A DNA stretch of 18,722 nt from a virus. Of the stretch, positions 1 to 18,722 are shown piece by piece. The position numbers and the translations under genes are program-made. The stretch lies in the IMG/VR virus record IMGVR_UViG_3300045988_025530; one strand, written 5' to 3'. The notes below the pieces were generated by a model. The model had not been told where the DNA came from and did not search any database. It saw nothing but the letters and a program-made list of their open reading frames with translations. Within the stretch, counting starts at the first letter, position 1. Each line of letters opens with the position of its first letter.

Positions 1-8
1 TCCGATCT
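1..8. other. Probable Illumina adapter remnant (TCCGATCT = 3' end of ...GCTCTTCCGATCT) fused to the genome terminus
   Basis: The first 8 nt are TCCGATCT and the last 8 nt are AGATCGGA, the start of the read-through adapter AGATCGGAAGAGC. The match is only 8 nt but exact at both ends. Confidence 0.65.
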
Positions 9-232
9 AAAAGGAGGGGTGGCCTCCTGGCAGCTGGCCTTTTTCCACAACTGTTCTGTTGTGTGTTTTTGTTCTTGTGTTTTGTTCTGTGTTTTTCATT
101 GCTGTTCTTGTCTTGTCATTTGTTATCACCTCTGTTGTATTCTCTTTCCTTGTTCTTTTTTCGTCGGGTTTTTTTGATGTTTCTGCGTGTCGTGTTTTGT
201 GGTGTTGTATTATATGAGTATCGGCCAAGGTA
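1..232. repeat. Left inverted terminal repeat (ITR); 224 bp if the 8-nt adapter is removed
   Basis: Nt 1-232 equal the reverse complement of 18491-18722 (compared by eye). ORF-track translations 7..228(-) and 18495..18716(+) are identical. Imperfect similarity continues to about 244/18479 (GGAAGGATGG). There is a GC-rich terminal block at 9-43, followed by an extremely T/G-rich tract. Confidence 0.95.
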
Positions 233-2228: not shown

Positions 2229-2577
2229 CGTTTTCCTTCCTGTCGATGTTGAAAATGTTGAGAATACTGGAGCCGCTTAACTCGGGGTTGATTTTTACGC
2301 AATTCTCCATGATTGAGGTAATCTCAATCAGGCAGATGCCTACGCAAACCGGGATGAACACCGGTAGTCCGATTCCGAGATTGATGTAGTCCGAACCGTA
2401 TTCTACAATCAGCGCGACACAGATTACGGCAAGGTAGGCGAATTTGTGTCCGAGCCCCCTCCGCATTCTCTCACTGGACAGCTTGCCGTGCATGATTGCG
2501 TTTACCACGCCGGTGATATAGTCAATCAGCACCAATAAAAATACAATGCCGATAACGATAAATTCATGGATTGGCAT
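2212..2577 (-). CDS. Holin (3 predicted TMDs; resembles the Phage_holin_4/TcdE-like family)
   Basis: 121 aa with three hydrophobic segments (FIVIGIVFLLVLIDYITGVVNAI, FAYLAVICVALIVEYG, LPVFIPVCVGICLIEITSIM) and a charged C-terminus (DRKENGGKED). RBS is GAGGAA. It lies immediately upstream of, and overlaps by 17 nt, the endolysin. Confidence 0.8.
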   Translation of the reverse strand: MPIHEFIVIGIVFLLVLIDYITGVVNAIMHGKLSSERMRRGLGHKFAYLAVICVALIVEYGSDYINLGIGLPVFIPVCVGICLIEITSIMENCVKINPELSGSSILNIFNIDRKENGGKED

Positions 2578-2586
2578 GAATATTCC

Positions 2587-3693
2587 TCACTTTCTTATAC
2601 CTGATTGCTGTAGTAAGCCGCCAAGTATCATACTGAATTCCGCCTTGATTTGTGGTGTTTCAAAACGCAATCGTCCGACGCGGTAGGCGTTTAGTATTTT
2701 CTGCGTCATATCATCTGAGCGTTTGAGCATCATGCAATCATTATCGACTAGTCGATAATCAAACGTAAAATCTCTAGTGATTTTAGGTTGCTTTTTGGTT
2801 ATGACATATAATACTTCGTCCGTGTCGCTTAATTGCTGGTATACGTTAAAAATACCGTATTCTGTGGTTCTCAGCGTGAACGCATAACCGGCGTTGTTGA
2901 AATCACTGATGAGGGTATTGGCGTTATCCCTAAAATCATTGTTGATTGCATAATTCGCATAATTTTCATCATATTTGCGTAGGAACGTGCCGAATTTGGA
3001 CGAGGCCACCTTTGCGCTGAACCCGCCATAATCGGCCAATTCCACCATGATAAACCCGTCGCAATAGCGTTGGTATTGCGTATGATTATCCAACTGTGGT
3101 TTTAGGTTGATATTGAATGCCGAAAAATACGGGTTGGCGAGGGTCACGGCGTTACTGCACATGATTACGCGAGTCCTATCATTCCACCGGTCAACCGTAT
3201 TGTAAAATTCCTCAAGCGAGGTCACTTCACCGCCCAAATACCGCATATTATCGGGGAAGATTTCATCGAAAACAATGGTGCGCACCTTGGGATACGCAAC
3301 CGATTTCACTTGTCCCGCCTGCGATAGGGCGATGAAGTACCCCATGATATGCCATGTGGGGCGTGTCTTGCCATGCTTGTCCGTGATGGCGTCCCTATCG
3401 TCCAGCCAATGACATTCCGCCTGATTGCCGGACACGCGAAACTCCAATCCCGGGTATTGCTCCGCGATATCCGCGAACCATGTGCCCTTGTTTTTCTGCT
3501 CCTCCGCCGTTCTGCGTAGATAGATGAACTGCCAGCGTTTTTTAATCCAGTCGCCTATGACCAGTTTTTTGGCACCGTAGGTTTTTCCGAGACCGCGCGC
3601 GCCAATGACGAACATCCAAGGCGCGTGGTAGGATAACACGCGCCCATAATCGTAATAATCGCCCTCGGCTAACAGTTTCTCCATATATATCAT
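2587..3693 (-). CDS. DNA encapsidation (packaging) ATPase, phi29 gp16-like
   Basis: Walker A GARGLGKT and Walker B TIVFDEIF. At 368 aa it is close to phi29 gp16 (332 aa), and it sits in the late operon. There is no obvious SD; the start could be the ATG at 3693 or at 3684. Confidence 0.8.
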   Translation of the reverse strand: MIYMEKLLAEGDYYDYGRVLSYHAPWMFVIGARGLGKTYGAKKLVIGDWIKKRWQFIYLRRTAEEQKNKGTWFADIAEQYPGLEFRVSGNQAECHWLDDRDAITDKHGKTRPTWHIMGYFIALSQAGQVKSVAYPKVRTIVFDEIFPDNMRYLGGEVTSLEEFYNTVDRWNDRTRVIMCSNAVTLANPYFSAFNINLKPQLDNHTQYQRYCDGFIMVELADYGGFSAKVASSKFGTFLRKYDENYANYAINNDFRDNANTLISDFNNAGYAFTLRTTEYGIFNVYQQLSDTDEVLYVITKKQPKITRDFTFDYRLVDNDCMMLKRSDDMTQKILNAYRVGRLRFETPQIKAEFSMILGGLLQQSGIRK

Positions 3694-3714
3694 TATGGCA
3701 CGACATACGGACTT

Positions 3715-4932
3715 TTAGAAGTTCGGTGGGGCACTAGCGCCGTCCCATACGACTAGCAGATTATACACGGTCCGATACCGGCTCGGGTATTGCCCGAAAA
3801 CACTGTCATTAAGCAGATTATCCAATAAACCGCCCAATGTGGTTGCTTTCGGTAGCGCCTCGGCGTATGCCGGGCCTTGATGATATGCAGACGCCCATAG
3901 TATCTGCATTTTCGCGTCCGAGTAGACTTGCGGATAATTGTTGTAATCCGTCTCGAACTGGTCACGTTGCCCCTGATGTGATTCGGCGCGTTGCGCCCAT
4001 GTTTTGAACGCCGCCGACTCCGTAGGGGTAAGAGGGCGTGTAAACGGCCCGCCATTGCCCATGAGTGCCGCTATCTCGGGGCATGTTTTGGCAAACGTCT
4101 CATAGCCTGTCGGGTCGGCGGTTTTCATCGCATTCAACACGTCCAACCGACGGTTAAACGACCATTGCGCAATCCCTATGCCCTGCCTGTTGGCTAATTC
4201 GACCGCGCCCCATTGCAATGAGCTTTCCACCGTGCCGATACAGTAGAGTGCGTAACTGCTTTTGCCGTTGCCTGTAGAGGGCGTGGCTTGGCCGCCCGAG
4301 TCACTGGGCGCTTTAACGCTACCCTTGGCCTTCCATGTTTGGGCCGTGGCTTTGTAGAAAATCATGGCACCCGCGCCACTGTCGTTGTCGCGGTAATGGT
4401 AGATAAGATTGTCGCCCTGTTGTTGTATCCACACGTCACTGCTGGATATGCTACCCGAGTTGTTCGAGCCGGTAGGGTTCGAGCCACTGTCATTGTCGCC
4501 GCCGTCCGGTTTTTTGCGCGGGTGCAAATATCCGATATACGCTTTTTGCAATGGGAGTAGTTTATGCACGCTTGGCTCGGGGTTTTGCGTAATCACGTCG
4601 ATGGAATCGCCCTGTATTCCATCAACGACAATGGCCACGTGCGTTGACGGATAATTGGGATAGCAGACCTGCCATATGGCTACGTCGCCGGGCATAGGGT
4701 TCCATGTGTTGTCTTTTTTCTCGAAAATCTCCCCGACTCTTGCGCTTACGGGATGATGTGTGTATAATCCCCCGGCCCAACCGGTAGGGGTGATACAATC
4801 CTGAACACTACACCCGTACTCATCCATGCAATATTTTGCCCACAAGTCCCAGCATTGCGGGCCCCAACTGCCGTCCATGTCCCAAAAGTGGTTTTCGGTC
4901 TGTTTCACCCATGTCCTGAAGTCAACTGCCAT
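3715..4932 (-). CDS. Tail-associated peptidoglycan hydrolase: N-terminal CHAP domain + C-terminal phi29 gp13-type lysozyme-like domain
   Basis: CHAP-like Cys/His signature (WGPQCWDLWAKYC ... PSTHVAIVV). Gly/Ser/Asn linker (GGDNDSGSNPTGSNNSGS). The C-terminal VESSLQWGAVELANRQGIGIAQWSFNRRL resembles phi29 gp13 SESTINPG...LGFGLVQWT. Its position in the tail module matches gp13. Confidence 0.7.
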   Translation of the reverse strand: MAVDFRTWVKQTENHFWDMDGSWGPQCWDLWAKYCMDEYGCSVQDCITPTGWAGGLYTHHPVSARVGEIFEKKDNTWNPMPGDVAIWQVCYPNYPSTHVAIVVDGIQGDSIDVITQNPEPSVHKLLPLQKAYIGYLHPRKKPDGGDNDSGSNPTGSNNSGSISSSDVWIQQQGDNLIYHYRDNDSGAGAMIFYKATAQTWKAKGSVKAPSDSGGQATPSTGNGKSSYALYCIGTVESSLQWGAVELANRQGIGIAQWSFNRRLDVLNAMKTADPTGYETFAKTCPEIAALMGNGGPFTRPLTPTESAAFKTWAQRAESHQGQRDQFETDYNNYPQVYSDAKMQILWASAYHQGPAYAEALPKATTLGGLLDNLLNDSVFGQYPSRYRTVYNLLVVWDGASAPPNF

Positions 4933-4942
4933 ACATAACAGT

Positions 4943-4972
4943 ATACCCCGCCCGGACTACCGGACGGGGTAT
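4943..4972 (-). other. Intergenic stem-loop (possible attenuator/terminator or 5' structure)
   Basis: ATACCCCG-c-CCGG acta CCGG-a-CGGGGTAT (12 bp with one mismatch). There is no clear U-tract on the minus strand. Confidence 0.4.
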
Positions 4973-4988
4973 GTTTCACGTGAAACAT
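4971..4988. promoter_or_regulatory. 18-bp perfect palindrome ATGTTTCACGTGAAACAT (candidate operator / RNA hairpin), site 1
   Basis: Perfect dyad read directly, in the 73-nt gap between the fibre gene stop (5006) and the tail-lysin start (4932). The same core recurs at 10961, 14009 and 14617. Confidence 0.5.
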
Positions 4989-5005
4989 GGGGCGTTACGC
5001 TGGTA

Positions 5006-8770: not shown

Positions 8771-11104
8771 TCACTCATAGCTGATGCCCGATAGTGGCTC
8801 ATTGTCCGCCCAGTCCGTCACGCCAATATACTCCGGTTTGCTCCATACGGTCACGCCCCGCTCGAACATGCCCTTGATGGTCAGACGGTATTCCTCCGGC
8901 AACGTGCCGCGAACATACGCCTCCTGCATCTGCCAAAACGTGAACTTCTTCATGCATTCCAGCGAGGCGGGCGGGGTGATGAAACGCTGGACGAAATACC
9001 CATACCGTAGCATGTATTCGCCTGCGGCCCTCAGGGCACTGGGGGCGCACGTTTTGAACCTGACCAGCACGCCCATGATTCCATTGCTCAAATTGAACAT
9101 GTCGCCACCGAGCGCGCCCGAGGTGGTTGGCGGCGTCAACTGCATTTGCTGGACTTGCGCGTTGATTCCCGCAATGGCGTTCTGGTAGTCGCCTTGGGCG
9201 GCGTAGGCGGCCAGTCCATAATTGGCCTGTGAGGTGATGGCATTGAGTTGGTTGCTCAATGCGGTCGCGCCGCTTGCATAGGCGTTCGCCTGCGAAGTGG
9301 ACGCCGTATTGGTGGCAATCTGATTTGCCGTACTGGCGGCGGCGGTGGAATTTGAAATAGCCGCCGAGGAATTGATGCCGTGGTTGGCGATGTCCATTTG
9401 AGCGGTGCCGAGGAACGCGCCGCCGATTGCGTTCGCCACTCCCATTGGGCTACGGGAGGCTATGGCGTTCAGACTACCGCCGATAGCTCCCGCCATACCA
9501 TTGAGGTTATTGTTACTGATGTTCTGTTGCACCTGCAATCCGGCCATCTGGCTGGCTCTGTCCTGACTGATGGCAAGGGACTGGTTCAGCGAGTTCGCCG
9601 TAATCGCATTGTTCGCGGTGCGGTTCTCATTGGCCCAATTGGTTTGCTGTGCGGCGTATTCGCGTTGCCACATTGCGTTCGAGTTGGCGACATCCGCCGA
9701 CGCCAATGCTTTTTGTCGCGTCCATTGCGCGGATTCCTGAGCATAGGCGCGGGTGTATGCGCTGTTCGCCATAGCCAATGCCCCGCCATTGTTGACAACG
9801 CTGAAATGAGGCAGATTGGTGATTCCAAAACTCGCATTAAGCATTTCACCGCCGTCAATCGGCAGACCGTAACCTCGATTGTTGATTTGGAGTGGGGTCA
9901 GCGTGTCCGCCCCGGCCTCATTGTATCCGGGGACATAAAAATTGATTCGTGTACCGGATGGCGCATAGGTGTACGTTTCCCTGATAGTGAGGTTATCGGA
10001 CTGGATGTCTTCCGGCCTGTAGTTGATTGTCGTTCCGTTGAGGCAACTGCATTCCACGACGCAATAGGGGTAGCAGTATAGTTTACGAAGATTGCGGTAT
10101 CGTTGCGGGATGTTAAAAAGGTTCCTGAAATCGGATACCGTCATGATGTCCTCGTAGCGCATGTCCGAGTCTACGCCGCTTTGGAAACCATAGACTCGTC
10201 CATGTTGCGCGTCAACCGACTGGCCGAAGATTTGTGTTACCTCCTGACCGTAGCGGTTGATGTAATCCTGTGGGATTTTCGGCACCATGTACACGGCGCA
10301 AATGCCTTGGGTAATCCACGGGTATGATGTTCCGGCCGCCATGATGTTCCACACGTAACTTATTCGGGAGTCACAATAGTAGACATTGCATCCATCCGTC
10401 GCACCCTCGAATATACTGCCCGTCGCCGTACGCAAATCGGGTTTCGACTCACTGCCGGGGGATTTGGTCAAATCCGTGGTGCTCACAATAATGACGCCAT
10501 AATCAACCCAATCCAATCCGCCATGCACGGTGTCCAGATGCTCCCCGGATATGATGGAATGATACCGTTGCGCCGTCGTTACCATCTCACTGCCGGTATC
10601 CAGACCCTCGGGGAGTGCCAGATAGGTGCGCCCGTAACCGTCCCACTGGTGTTCATTGGCCACACCGATATGACCGCGCGTCACATAGCAACTGCCGAAC
10701 GTGACATCATGCTGGAAACTCTGCCATACATCCAGCATCAAAACCAACTGGGTGCAATGGGCGTTGACGTATTCGACGCGCTGGATGAAGTAGTACCATG
10801 CGCGCGGCCCCTCAAGCTCGGGGTAATCATTATAGGCCACCAGATAATTCCAGTTCGACGCCTCATTGAATGGGAGTTCGACGCGGGCGGGCGCGTTGAA
10901 GATGTGCATGATGGCCGGGCGGCATTCCACGCCATCCAGCTTATCAAACCACTGTTCTTGTGTTTCACGTGAAACAAACCGGACAACATCCCGGTAGGAC
11001 GCATCCCATGGGACGCGGCAGAGTTTCAGCGTGGTGTTGGGTGTCCATTCCGCCCATGAGAAATTAGCCTCCACGTAGGGGTTCACATCGTCAATCATTG
11101 TCAA
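8771..11104 (-). CDS. Tail knob protein (phi29 gp9-like) with expanded low-complexity loop
   Basis: [44 protein letters not shown] compares with phi29 [54 protein letters not shown] compares with MYPYCVTE. The C-terminal LRYGYFVQR...GVTVWS compares with HKYGYKINR...GITLWH. RBS is GGAGG. Confidence 0.85.
   Translation of the reverse strand: [777 protein letters not shown]
10961..10976. repeat. 16-bp perfect palindrome TGTTTCACGTGAAACA, site 2 (inside the tail-knob gene)
   Basis: Read directly. It encodes V-S-R-E-T (residues 44-48) on the minus strand. Confidence 0.5.
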
Positions 11105-13492: not shown

Positions 13493-13501
13493 ATTATAGC
13501 A
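13493..13501 (-). promoter_or_regulatory. Extended -10 box TGCTATAAT overlapping the DNA polymerase stop codon (candidate middle/late promoter)
   Basis: The minus strand reads CTTTTA TGC TAT AAT ATCCGG, a perfect TGnTATAAT. The -35 region (TGATGA at 17-nt spacing) is poor, which extended -10 promoters tolerate. Confidence 0.45.
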
Positions 13502-14954
13502 TAAAAGTATGGCCGTCATCATTGATATGGCGTGAACCGGGTATAAACTCATCATAGGGGATGGGGGCGGCTCGATGTACGCCGCTCAAACGCATTACCG
13601 TATCGCCGCCCGTTTCCACGCCGCAATATTTGCGATTGCCGAGGATACGGAGCCTGTCATAGGTGTGGTCGTTTTTCCACGCGCCTAGTTTTCGGTCATC
13701 CGTTTCTATACCTGCGGGCGCGTCCAGCCCTTCCAGTATCATGCCGTCGGTATCGGCGTAGAGTACGCGCTCGGCGTTATCGTTCATGGCGCGGGATAGT
13801 ATTCGCCTCCCGTAGGCGTTGACATATGCGGCGGTTGGCAACCATGCCAGACTGTTGGCCGACTCGGGTTTATCCACGGTAAAATCCACGCCACCGTCCA
13901 CGGACGGTTTCGGGTGTAACATGGGCCGGTAGAGGGAGGCCCCGAATTTTCCCACCAGTGAATTCAGCAACAGTTTCGCCATCTGCCTGCGCTCCCCGGT
14001 TTCTGTTTGTTTCACGTGGAACCATTTGTCCACGTATGTGTAGTAGAGTCCGTGTGATTTGCGGAATTTCCAGCCGCCGATATGCTCCCACACATGGATG
14101 TCATAGTTTTCGGCCAGCGTTTCCCAATCCACATCCGTGACCGGCATAGTTACGACGCCGAGCGTACTATCCAGACGTTCACCCTCATACCCCCATACGG
14201 GTAGGATATTGGTGAGTGTCGCCGTTTTTCCCGGTTTCAACCTTGCATCAAACGCAATGACATCGATATGGAGCGGATAGTCATTGTCATGTTGATACTT
14301 CCCGTCGTACCATATGGGTGAGCCTACCGGCATGGGCGCATCGCGCATGATACTCGGGTAGAGGCTGTTCACGTCCCAGCTTCGGCAATCCCGGTATTCG
14401 CCCGGCTTGCTGTATACTATCGCCCCATAGTAGGCGGGGCGCATACGGTGATAAACATCTTTGTCCAATGACGGAAAATGACGTTTGAATCCGGCGTAAT
14501 CCCCGTCGATATAGTCGGTCATTGCCATTGACGCTATCGTAGTGCCCCTGAGATTCAGGGAAGCGCATTCCTGCGCGATATTCCACGTGGTTTCCAAGTC
14601 ATCCGCGCCGCCGAATGTTTCACGTAAAACATTCAAGCCATCGTCGCGCGTAATATTGCGCACGTCCACAAAATCCACGGTGATACCGCCCATGCGCACG
14701 CGGAAACTGTAGAAATGTCCACGGATGTTAAACGTGCCCCACACACCGTCCTTGGCTGGGTTCGACTGCGAGGGGAGTCGTTTCAACAGTTCGGCGGCTA
14801 TGGGCTTGATGTCCTGCCATCCGTGGGCACACCATACGCGCGTATGATAATTGAGCATGGTGAGACGGATGACGGTGTTCACCGTCAATGGTTCCATGCC
14901 GTCATCCGTCAATAGTGTTGCGCCGTCTGTTGCCGCCGTTCGACGCTCTTTCAT
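13494..14954 (-). CDS. Family-B protein-primed DNA polymerase (phi29 gp2-like), short N-terminal domain
   Basis: Motif A is DVNSLYPSIM (phi29 DVNSLYPAQM). DGKYQHDNDYPLHIDVIAFDARLKPG compares with EGKYVWDEDYPLHIQHIRCEFELKEG. YxGA is PAYYGA. Motif B is KLLLNSLVGKF (phi29 KLMLNSLYGKF). Motif C is LYADTDGM (phi29 IYCDTDSI). KxY is NRKY. RBS is AAAGGA. Confidence 0.95.
   Translation of the reverse strand: MKERRTAATDGATLLTDDGMEPLTVNTVIRLTMLNYHTRVWCAHGWQDIKPIAAELLKRLPSQSNPAKDGVWGTFNIRGHFYSFRVRMGGITVDFVDVRNITRDDGLNVLRETFGGADDLETTWNIAQECASLNLRGTTIASMAMTDYIDGDYAGFKRHFPSLDKDVYHRMRPAYYGAIVYSKPGEYRDCRSWDVNSLYPSIMRDAPMPVGSPIWYDGKYQHDNDYPLHIDVIAFDARLKPGKTATLTNILPVWGYEGERLDSTLGVVTMPVTDVDWETLAENYDIHVWEHIGGWKFRKSHGLYYTYVDKWFHVKQTETGERRQMAKLLLNSLVGKFGASLYRPMLHPKPSVDGGVDFTVDKPESANSLAWLPTAAYVNAYGRRILSRAMNDNAERVLYADTDGMILEGLDAPAGIETDDRKLGAWKNDHTYDRLRILGNRKYCGVETGGDTVMRLSGVHRAAPIPYDEFIPGSRHINDDGHTFML
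14009..14022. repeat. Palindrome GTTTCACGTGGAAC (one mismatched pair), site 3 (inside pol)
   Basis: Read directly. The minus strand encodes F-H-V-K-Q (TTC CAC GTG AAA CAA), a different codon register from sites 2 and 4. Confidence 0.45.
14613..14634. repeat. 22-bp palindrome GAATGTTTCACGTAAAACATTC (one mismatched pair), site 4 (inside pol)
   Basis: Read directly. The minus strand encodes N-V-L-R-E-T-F. Confidence 0.45.
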
Positions 14955-14966
14955 GATTCCATCCTT

Positions 14967-15911
14967 TTAGTGTCGTGCCGCGCTGGTCATCCATTCATCG
15001 AGTCGCGTCTCTACATCACCCGCGTCCGCCTTCGTCTCCCATTTATGTGTCTTATCATTATACCATGTAGCTTCCCGTACCACGGTGCCAAAATTCGTGT
15101 TGTTTATCAACCATCGTTTTTGACGGTTCGATAAAGACGCGAATTTTCGGGCGACATTGGCGTCGAATGCTTCGAGTTGCTGTTCGACCCTATCAAAATC
15201 CGCAACCCCCTCGTTCTCGGGAATCTTTCCAGTACCTGCATGTAATGGCGCGCGTCCTACAAGCCCGGCGTATTCGAGTATCTCCCTTTCAAGCCTACTC
15301 CTGCCCCCCTCTCGTATCATCATACGCGCGTGGCTCATGCCACGCTCCGAACCGAACACGTTCTCCCGGTTGCGCGTGAGTTCGTCACGCGCCGAACCGC
15401 CGACCGTATGAGTGCCTAACACATCAAACGGGGATTCTCCAGCGCGTTCCATCTCACGCATTTCGCCCACGGTGTAGTTGGCCATGCTCAATGCGTCGAA
15501 TTGTTGGGCGCGTTTGATTTTCCGCCGTGCCTCGATACGGCGGCGCTGTTGCTGTCGTAATGTTTTCCGACGTTTCGTCGGGGCGGCGGCGATTTCCGCG
15601 TCGGTAATCAACGGACGCGCCGCCAGTTCCCTATCGAGTTTCGTAATATGCACATCCGGGACAACCTGATACGGCTCGTTGTCCCGGGCCCTTAGGGCTT
15701 GCTGTTGTTCCCCGAACTCCTGCCCGATACGGCGTGCAACCTGTTCGAGTTGTTGGGCGCTGAGTTTTCCCAGAAACGTTTCGGTGATTTGCTTGGGGAG
15801 GTGTCCGGTACTGTAATCCCTGACTGCTTGCTCTCGGCGTACCTGTGCCGACCTGATAGCGGCGTTGCGTTTCAGATTGTTGGCGCGTCGGTTGTTTTTA
15901 CGTTTTGCCAC
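14967..15911 (-). CDS. Putative terminal protein (replication primer), basic
   Basis: It lies immediately upstream of the polymerase, as phi29 gene 3 does. The N-terminus is Arg/Lys-rich (AKRKNNRRANNLKRNAAIRSAQVRRE, compared with phi29 TP ARSPRIRIKDNDKAEYARLVKNTKAKIARTKKK), with a second basic patch PTKRRKTLRQQQRRRIEARRKIKRAQ. The GTG at 15911 is preferred (RBS AAGGGGGAG), because the track start TTG 15986 would put a strong hairpin inside the CDS. No sequence-level homology could be verified. Confidence 0.5.
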   Translation of the reverse strand: MAKRKNNRRANNLKRNAAIRSAQVRREQAVRDYSTGHLPKQITETFLGKLSAQQLEQVARRIGQEFGEQQQALRARDNEPYQVVPDVHITKLDRELAARPLITDAEIAAAPTKRRKTLRQQQRRRIEARRKIKRAQQFDALSMANYTVGEMREMERAGESPFDVLGTHTVGGSARDELTRNRENVFGSERGMSHARMMIREGGRSRLEREILEYAGLVGRAPLHAGTGKIPENEGVADFDRVEQQLEAFDANVARKFASLSNRQKRWLINNTNFGTVVREATWYNDKTHKWETKADAGDVETRLDEWMTSAARH

Positions 15912-15937
15912 AGTCTCCCCCTTGCGAGTATGAAACA

Positions 15938-15971
15938 CCCCTCGCCGCAAGGATGGAAAAACGACGAGGGG
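15938..15971 (-). other. Stem-loop in the SSB-TP intergenic region (attenuator/terminator candidate)
   Basis: CCCCTCGCCG (15938-15947) / CGACGAGGGG (15962-15971) form a 10-bp stem with one G-U in the RNA and a 14-nt loop. On the minus strand it is followed by UGUUUCAUACU. Confidence 0.4.
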
Positions 15972-16035
15972 TGAGTTTGGCGGCAACGTCCCTATAGAGA
16001 CATTGCCATGTTATCATATGATGTGGACAATTAGT

Positions 16036-18481: not shown

Positions 18482-18531
18482 CCTTCCTTATACCTTGGCC
18501 GATACTCATATAATACAACACCACAAAACAC
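18479..18531 (-). promoter_or_regulatory. Putative early promoter + RBS cassette, copy 3 (inner edge of right ITR)
   Basis: This is the reverse complement of copy 1 through GGCCAAGGTA, followed by TAAGGAAGGATGGCGGTTGATATG. The TATTAT -10-like box lies at 18510-18515 (minus strand). Confidence 0.4.
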
Positions 18532-18722
18532 GACACGCAGAAACATCAAAAAAACCCGACGAAAAAAGAACAAGGAAAGAGAATACAACAGAGGTGATAA
18601 CAAATGACAAGACAAGAACAGCAATGAAAAACACAGAACAAAACACAAGAACAAAAACACACAACAGAACAGTTGTGGAAAAAGGCCAGCTGCCAGGAGG
18701 CCACCCCTCCTTTTAGATCGGA
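18491..18722. repeat. Right inverted terminal repeat
   Basis: Exact reverse complement of 1-232. Confidence 0.95.
18715..18722. other. Probable Illumina adapter remnant (AGATCGGA)
   Basis: It matches the first 8 nt of the AGATCGGAAGAGC read-through adapter. Confidence 0.65.

Follow-up and report, generated by a model that had tools for sequence, protein, structure and literature searches.

We report that the DNA polymerase encoded by IMG/VR virus record IMGVR_UViG_3300045988_025530, a complete linear phi29-like podophage genome of 18,722 nt (~18.7 kb) that we analysed in full and refer to as the window, carries a miniaturised N-terminal exonuclease domain with an incomplete set of catalytic residues. 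From its homology, fold, missing residues, clade distribution and relaxed constraint, we infer that this replicase is very probably proofreading-dead, that its fidelity may be lowered and that the domain is probably kept as a scaffold. The short, exonuclease-degenerate (exo-degenerate) state is old and stable, and defines one clade of Bifidobacterium-type podophages. The gene and the domain in question lie as follows.

13494..14954, minus strand: DNA polymerase, 486 amino acids (aa), open reading frame (ORF) and translation; the only polymerase found in the genome
14529..14954, minus strand: N-terminal domain (N-domain), residues 1–142, a miniaturised, catalytically incomplete DnaQ-like exonuclease fold

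The protein is a protein-primed family B polymerase (PolB) with a complete polymerisation half. It matches PHROG 1907 (E 7e-55) and Pfam PF03175 (DNA_pol_B_2) with 123.4 bits against a cut-off of 25.8, residues 130–341 corresponding to profile positions 166–390; the N-terminal, exonuclease part of the Pfam model finds no match in the protein. Residues 155–443 align without large gaps to residues 206–500 of the phi29 polymerase (1xhx; reference sequence from NC_011048) with an E-value of 9e-44. AlphaFold2, run on an alignment of 100 sequences, gave a model with a mean predicted local distance difference test score (pLDDT) of 95 and a predicted template modelling score (pTM) of 0.92. Its top Foldseek match is the phi29 polymerase 2pyj_B (E 5e-40, TMq 0.85, alignment across the whole target), and RNA/DNA-primed PolBs follow far behind, with template modelling (TM) scores of at most 0.45. 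Pfam and PHROG scans of the ORFs of the genome found no second polymerase.

The initial annotation of this sequence had described the domain as short and had correctly delimited it as residues 1–142 of the minus-strand gene: the phi29 equivalent has 189–192 residues, and those of canonical relatives have 180–215. Such a length could be an artefact of a wrong start, a frameshift or an assembly error, or could mark a decaying gene in a phage that uses another polymerase, and the unusual length itself, though nothing else, speaks for this. However, the ORF opens right after a stop codon, on which grounds we rejected a misplaced start or an exon missed upstream, and it has a ribosome-binding site. 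The same form recurs in 486-aa polymerases at 86–94% identity from more than 80 protein clusters of independent metagenomes, one of them labelled as a Bifidobacterium breve metagenome-assembled genome, and in three independently isolated phage groups. The polymerase motifs are invariant, the model is confident throughout and the genome has no other polymerase to use. An artefact or pseudogene, of negligible probability to us, is thus already refuted by the independent copies and the intact motifs.

Aligned by hhalign against 120 canonical exonuclease domains, 27 N-domains of the short clade gave a probability of 97.4% and an E-value of 1.5e-11. The alignment places query residues 21–142 on phi29 residues 40–192, with a single gap of 27 residues over phi29 positions ~140–166. 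In the model, the N-domain has a pLDDT of 92–98 and comprises strand β1 (residues 4–9), a hairpin (13–22), a helix (25–31), a strand (37–42), a helix (46–59), three strands (70–97) and then helices to residue 132. This order agrees with that of the phi29 exonuclease domain, and the superposition takes in the whole chain (TM 0.85), a comparison of model and structure that the initial annotation had proposed. On the grounds of the hhalign homology, the model topology and the Foldseek match, the N-domain is therefore a true miniaturised exonuclease fold, about 50 residues shorter than its homologues, and not a new domain. We treated as chance a weak, repeated match of residues 72–121 (14592–14741) to the designed β-trefoil ThreeFoil (3pg0; E 0.0015).

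The remnants of the exonuclease motifs, all on the minus strand, are listed below with their phi29 equivalents.

14916..14930, minus strand: possible ExoI relic TDGAT; D10 is the possible equivalent of phi29 D12, with Ala at the position of catalytic Glu14
14811..14825, minus strand: ExoII relic HGWQD; H44 = N62, Q47 = F65 and D48 = D66 (hhalign and MAFFT)
14646..14666, minus strand: clade motif DVRNITR (D97-x-x-N100-h-x-R103), which replaces the (S/T)Lx2h motif, binding single-stranded DNA (ssDNA), of phi29 (YDSLKKLP)
14592..14609, minus strand: site of the 27-residue deletion (G116/A117), followed by the ExoIII relic GADDLE, with D119 at the D169 position

Read across the catalytic and ligand columns, canonical enzymes have D-E-T-N-F-D...K-Y-Y-D, as opposed to R-A-A-H-Q-D...gap-gap-gap-D in the query. 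The ExoI region is the least certain. Residues 1–20 fall outside the hhalign coverage, and D10 is only tentatively equated with D12, on the basis of a gapless match at an offset of 2 (RRTAATDGAT against phi29 RKMYSCDFET) and of its place just after the end of β1. The Glu14 position is occupied by Ala12 in this match and by Ala7 in the MAFFT alignment; neither yields an equivalent of the Glu. For ExoII, hhalign and one MAFFT alignment agree on the register, and another MAFFT alignment is off by one. Downstream, phi29 S122/L123 correspond to V98/R99, and the deletion takes out both K143, the Lys of the Kx2h motif, and Y165, the Tyr of ExoIII. The pairing of D119 with D169 is given by hhalign, by MAFFT and by a HMMER profile comparison with 1xhx, which sets A117-D118-D119 on K167-N168-D169. 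The query therefore retains two, possibly three, of the four DEDDy carboxylates (D48, D119 and, tentatively, D10). It has neither the complete set of four nor the ExoIII Tyr (Yx3D), and the ssDNA ligands N62, F65, S122 and L123 are all replaced. Because the DEDDy site is incomplete in these ways, with the ExoI Glu changed to Ala, K143 and Y165 deleted and the ssDNA ligands replaced, the enzyme most likely has no useful proofreading.

These assignments revise the residue map of the initial annotation. The strings it had quoted (IRLTMLNYH, TRVWCAHGW, FNIRGHF, FGGAD at residues 114–118 and NSLVGKF at 331–337) all lie where it had placed them. However, it had anchored TRVWCAHGW on phi29 CRVWAYGYM, and MAFFT, hhalign and the secondary structure of the model instead place TRVWCAHGW on the ExoII strand (ADLYFHNLKF). 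Its assignment of the ExoI DxE motif to IRLTMLNYH (V..R) falls with that anchor. It had likewise read FNIRGHF as ExoII HNLKFDG, with the Asn kept and the Asp changed to His; FNIRGHF aligns with phi29 ISRMGQWY, and ExoII is HGWQD. Its view that the acidic residues are missing was right for the ExoI Glu and for the DEDDy set as a whole, and wrong for ExoII and ExoIII, where D48 and D119 stand. For ExoIII it had offered FGGAD at best, which was right in spirit since the Tyr is deleted, though D119 of GADDLE does align with D169.

Adjoining the deletion and ExoIII-relic site, at 14609–14632 within the coding region of the N-domain, lies a 24-mer with a palindrome (core GTTTCACGT.AAAC). A copy between genes, at 4971–4994, is complementary to it at 88% of positions, and another copy is found at 10961–10980.

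To place the polymerase among its relatives, we gathered homologues by a word-indexed search and by a profile search run exhaustively over 1.8 billion representatives, and read positions against phi29 in 176 representatives, among them 120 canonical and 28 of short form. The relatives fall into two size groups, a short form of 454–496 aa and a canonical form of ~550–600 aa. A tree of just the polymerase half joins the 28 short-form representatives into one monophyletic group (support 100). The 120 canonical sequences show D-E-T-N-F-D, S-L and K-Y-Y-D almost invariably; in the short clade, an acid at the E14 position is found in 0/28, and the 27-residue deletion in 28/28. The substitutions to which the initial annotation had drawn attention are thus shared by relatives across the clade. 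Most members keep the Asp-Gly pair seen at D10-G11 of the query, with the +2 position never acidic, and within DVRNITR N100 is invariant and R103 nearly so. Among cultured phages, the short form is found in BadAztec1 (469 aa), BD811P3 (483 aa) and BP1 (471 aa). Canonical enzymes of full length are found in other actinobacterial podophages (Microbacterium phage Curie, 603 aa; Curtobacterium phage Prophecy, 583 aa; Eggerthella phage LE1-1, 562 aa), the exonuclease residues having been read directly for Curie and LE1-1.

The two surviving carboxylates are distributed unevenly within the clade. Of the 28 sequences, 9 have Asp at the D66 position and 10 have Asp or Glu at the D169 position; the remainder show P, V, A, N, R, H or a gap there. 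D48 and D119 together are confined to the sub-clade of the query (representatives P0001, P0087, P0088, P0093 and P0095–P0097); P0098 has D48 only, with Pro at the D169 position. In the sister lineages P0099–P0101, the D66 position is Thr or Ser, and the D169 position is Val in P0099 and P0101 and Glu in P0100. As the D66 and D169 equivalents are freely replaced in the clade, they are unlikely to be needed for catalysis. We dropped the idea that β1 is missing altogether from some clade members, since annotated starts may be too short, as in BadAztec1. There (NC_048858, 2435–2477), the polymerase frame is open for 14 codons before the annotated ATG, with a GTG nine codons upstream.

Constraint on the domain is relaxed without being lost. 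N-domain identity divided by polymerase-domain identity gives 0.53 for the short clade (343 pairs) and 0.94 for canonical enzymes (1752 pairs); measured against the polymerase half, short-clade N-domains evolve about twice as fast as canonical ones. Among 81 near relatives of the query, the mean minor-residue frequency is 0.082 in the N-domain and 0.086 in the rest of the protein. Since its variability is no higher than elsewhere, the N-domain is still under selection and is not decaying.

Several observations weigh against a proofreading-dead replicase. The query and its near sub-clade have Asp at the D66 (D48) and D169 (D119) positions, and possibly at that of D12 (D10). The initial annotation had named an Asp of GADDLE at a canonical metal-binding position as a result that would refute its own reading, and formal alignment does put D119 on D169, and D48 on D66. 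All three residues are invariant or nearly so among the 81 near relatives. Weak or altered metal-dependent activity in this sub-clade is therefore possible. In its strongest form, the N-domain of the sub-clade would still be a working, if unusual, exonuclease with attenuated proofreading, in which D10, D48 and D119, perhaps with another acid of the β2–β3 hairpin (D17, D18 or E21), bind metal and remove mismatches. In its favour are D10 following β1 as D12 does, the conservation of E21 in 78/81 of the near relatives beside the (near-)invariance of D10 and D119, and the retention of D10, D48 and an acid at 119 in the sub-clade down to ~48% identity. We nevertheless find it unlikely. The E14 position is never acidic in the clade, K143 and Y165 fall within the deletion, the four ssDNA ligands are replaced, and in sister lineages D48 and D119 give way freely (to Pro in P0098 and Val in P0099 and P0101) with the architecture otherwise unchanged. 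In DEDD exonucleases such as those of phi29, the Klenow fragment and DnaQ, loss of the ExoI Glu alone cuts activity by orders of magnitude.

Fidelity could also be sustained by other means. Base selection at the polymerase site alone can reach 10^4–10^6 in phi29 (PMC6351526), which weighs against lowered fidelity. A host exonuclease (for example DnaQ-like or with a PHP domain) or a small, unrecognised early phage protein could moreover proofread in trans, leaving fidelity unimpaired. The genome has about nine early ORFs without a detectable family, among which such a protein might be sought, and the clade is old and successful, which shows just that the loss is tolerated. Yet no ORF on either arm of the genome matches an exonuclease family in Pfam or PHROGs. 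The enzyme encircles DNA with TPR2 and the thumb (PMC6351526, PMC1475753), giving a separate protein little access to the primer end, and the elements that hand the primer to the exonuclease site have themselves decayed. Proofreading in trans thus seems to us very improbable. The absence of 3′–5′ proofreading, as the initial annotation had suggested, is very probable and is strengthened by the incomplete site, its lack of conservation in the clade and the fast evolution of the N-domain; residual activity is possible.

The polymerisation half, in contrast, keeps its catalytic equipment, and its deviations fall on elements around the primer terminus.

14355..14375, minus strand: motif A DVNSLYP, with catalytic Asp194 and steric-gate Tyr199 intact
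13944..13964, minus strand: motif B NSLVGKF, residues 331–337, with Val334 in place of a near-universal Tyr (phi29 Y390)
13806..13820, minus strand: Tx2GR motif, NAYGR, with Asn379 in place of phi29 Thr434
13743..13760, minus strand: motif C YADTDG, with both Asp intact (D401, D403)
13626..13634, minus strand: KxY motif, RKY, with Arg441 in place of phi29 Lys498
13497..13580, minus strand: shortened thumb, 28 residues past the conserved Gly (phi29 G532) compared with a canonical median of 46

The motif residues D194, Y199, K327, N331, G335, D401 and D403 are present, and the sole deviation among them is the motif B Tyr, whose replacement by Val334, as reported in the initial annotation, our alignments confirm. 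The TPR1 and TPR2 insertions are also present, as judged from the continuous alignment with phi29 and from a β-hairpin (345–361) of the model at the TPR2 position. The thumb loop carrying phi29 K538, K555, K557 and Q560 is absent, as is the C-terminal K575.

These changes run through the short clade. The motif B Tyr, present in 111 of the 120 canonical enzymes, is missing from all 28 short-form representatives (V 18, I 7, T 2, A 1). The Lys of KxY occurs in 0/27 short-clade sequences compared with 120/120 canonical ones; the Tx2GR position is Asn in 18/27, compared with Thr in 116 of the 120; and the thumb columns K538, K555, K557 and Q560 are deleted in 27/27, the chain stopping 18 residues sooner. 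A variant of motif C is also found in the clade: Asn-Thr-Asp (YANTDG) takes the place of Asp-Thr-Asp in 10/27 short-clade polymerases and 0/120 canonical ones, the query having the latter. The carriers are BD811P3 (2342–3793), BP1 (2378–3793), P0128, P0129, P0131, P0132, P0134, P0138, P0169 and P0098.

According to mutational work of the Salas laboratory, KxY and Tx2GR reportedly act in stabilising the primer terminus in phi29. The phi29 thumb coordinates synthesis with degradation (PMC1475753), and Tyr390 governs which insertions and extensions are preferred, as opposite 8-oxo-dG (PMC1976434). The elements that hold the primer terminus in phi29 and shuttle it between the two active sites have changed in step, with Tyr to Val in motif B, Lys to Arg in KxY, Thr to Asn in Tx2GR and the thumb loop deleted, and this joint change fits an enzyme that no longer shuttles the primer to a second active site. 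By analogy with phi29, the change of Tyr390 to Val takes away an aromatic side chain, and base selection may also be relaxed.

We propose that the polymerase primes on a candidate terminal protein (a 339-aa ORF) at the inverted terminal repeats and that the genome would then be copied by processive strand displacement; both steps are presumed because the polymerisation half is complete (motifs A, B and C, the steric-gate Tyr, TPR1 and TPR2). The N-domain would form one wall of a downstream-template tunnel with TPR2, needed for strand displacement, and may also be a docking surface for the terminal protein. This tunnel is built from the exonuclease domain and TPR2 in phi29, where enzymes mutated at the metal ligands of the exonuclease site lose strand displacement (PMC6351526); that could be one reason for the retention of the fold and perhaps of the surviving Asp residues. 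Retention of the N-domain for strand displacement and for interaction with the terminal protein would fit phi29 biochemistry (PMC6351526).

Beyond the short clade, at least 20 further phi29-type representatives, of 511–577 aa and scattered among canonical enzymes, are exo-degenerate, without the canonical ExoI, ExoII and ExoIII residues. They include the following metagenomic sequences.

Exo-degenerate outside the clade: P0140, P0142, P0148, P0163, P0165, P0171, P0180, P0213, P0215, P0216
Exo-degenerate outside the clade, continued: P0231, P0237, P0238, P0259–P0262, P0265, P0267

A quick IQ-TREE tree requires at least 8 changes of exonuclease state, and exonuclease decay seems to have arisen several times among phi29-like polymerases. 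The motif B Tyr has also been lost in half of the exo-degenerate representatives outside the short clade. In raw counts, motif B has Tyr or Phe in 112/120 canonical enzymes compared with 10/48 exo-degenerate ones. Only four independent contrasts are supported, of which about 3 go the same way and ~0.1 the opposite way (sign test p ~0.25), so that a link between loss of the exonuclease and loss of the Tyr is suggestive only.

Compared with phi29 gp2 (1XHX, 2PYJ, 2EX3), the polymerase is of the same family and architecture, with motifs A and C, K383 and N387 of motif B, TPR1 and TPR2 in common, and its genome likewise has terminal repeats and a phi29-type single-stranded DNA-binding protein (SSB). 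It differs in length (486 compared with 575 residues; N-domain 142 compared with ~190) and in the lack of equivalents of E14, K143, Y165, N62, F65 and S122/L123. It further has Val for Y390, Arg for K498 and Asn for T434, and a thumb that is 18 residues shorter, without the K538–Q560 loop and K575. BadAztec1, BD811P and BP1 share with it the short clade, the gene order, the 27-residue deletion, the loss of the motif B Tyr and the short thumb. They belong to other sub-clades and, unlike the query, have no Asp at the D66 and D169 positions; BD811P and BP1 differ further in the Asn-Thr-Asp of motif C. The records label all of these enzymes just 'DNA polymerase'.

Inactivated exonuclease domains are familiar elsewhere among PolBs. 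Eukaryotic Pol alpha keeps one as structure. In Pol zeta, the exonuclease fold has been kept as a structural domain after the loss of catalytic residues (PMC7544198). These are unrelated RNA/DNA-primed enzymes, large, multi-subunit and not the sole replicase, whereas the polymerase studied here is the only replicase of its virus. The phenotype expected of it, polymerisation without proofreading, is that of laboratory exonuclease-deficient (exo-minus) phi29 polymerases (D12A/D66A; N62D). Those have one or two residues changed in a full-size domain; here, the Glu, Lys and Tyr are lost, the sub-clade Asp residues kept, the domain shrunk and the contacts with the primer terminus remodelled. The D12A/D66A mutant of phi29 is impaired in strand displacement (PMC6351526). 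The phage studied here must replicate 18.7 kb, so some compensation is implied.

A review covering Badaztecvirus and BD811P1 is silent on exonuclease domains (PMC11476376), and a survey of PolB diversity mentions inactivated ones for other PolB groups only (PMC7544198). Our literature search, to which most subscription-journal papers were out of reach, found no description of exonuclease-deficient phi29-like phage polymerases. Judged from its sequence, this would be a naturally exonuclease-degenerate, miniaturised protein-primed polymerase of a kind for which we found no prior description.

The genome as a whole carries a phi29-type gene set, with a major capsid protein of the Phi29_MCP family, upper and lower collar and tail proteins, a packaging ATPase, holin, endolysin, phi29-type SSB and the family B polymerase. 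Its ends and the gene upstream of the polymerase are as follows.

1..232, no strand: left inverted terminal repeat, 232 nt, 100% complementary to 18491–18722
18491..18722, no strand: right inverted terminal repeat, pairing with 1–232
14967..15986, minus strand: candidate gene for the terminal protein (339 aa), immediately upstream of that for the polymerase and assigned by position alone

A megablast search of deposited phages found no close genome, the best match being 245 nt at 80%. The nearest polymerases are those of the Bifidobacterium phages BadAztec1/2/4 (BadAztec1, NC_048858), BadAargau2, BD811P1-3 (OP172658-60) and BP1 (PQ571273), at 34–36% identity over 89–96% of the length. BadAztec1, BD811P3 and BP1 have the gene order of the query, with an ORF of 317–351 aa followed by the polymerase, a small ORF and the capsid gene. 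The phage would thus be a genus-level lineage distinct from Badaztecvirus and the other cultured Bifidobacterium podophages, within the same wider clade.

Pfam and PHROGs gave no noteworthy match for the candidate terminal protein; the gene in this position is annotated as the terminal protein in Microbacterium and Curtobacterium phages. The candidate is very basic near the N-terminus and longer than its phi29 counterpart (339 aa compared with 266 aa). A larger terminal protein coincides here with a shortened polymerase thumb and N-domain, and co-adaptation is conceivable. The ORFs of the candidate terminal protein and the polymerase share a reading frame, with just one TAA and four codons between them (14955–14969). 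In BadAztec1 and BD811P3 the two genes do not share a frame, so we set aside a read-through fusion and take the arrangement here as probable coincidence.

Among viral replicases, that of phi29 is the textbook example of self-sufficiency and high fidelity, and DNA amplification and single-molecule sequencing both rely heavily on it. Exo-minus versions are needed in those uses, but the engineered ones have impaired strand displacement. If the polymerase described here is indeed proofreading-dead, strand displacement and the handling of the primer terminus must have been solved anew without an exonuclease site, and the clade would offer natural solutions for the design of exo-minus enzymes: a compact (486 aa), ready-made exo-minus strand-displacing polymerase that might also accept damaged or modified nucleotides. 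It is conceivable, though we hold it doubtful, that a stably exo-null replicase without Tyr390 gives these phages a mutation rate 1–2 orders above that of other double-stranded DNA (dsDNA) phages and serves as a mutator strategy against Bifidobacterium defences. The annotation now in use, 'DNA polymerase', hides what appears to be repeated exonuclease decay in phi29-like polymerases. An old, abundant clade without proofreading would show that the exonuclease is not essential for this mode of replication, and raises the question of mutation rates and evolvability in the small dsDNA phages of the human and bee gut.

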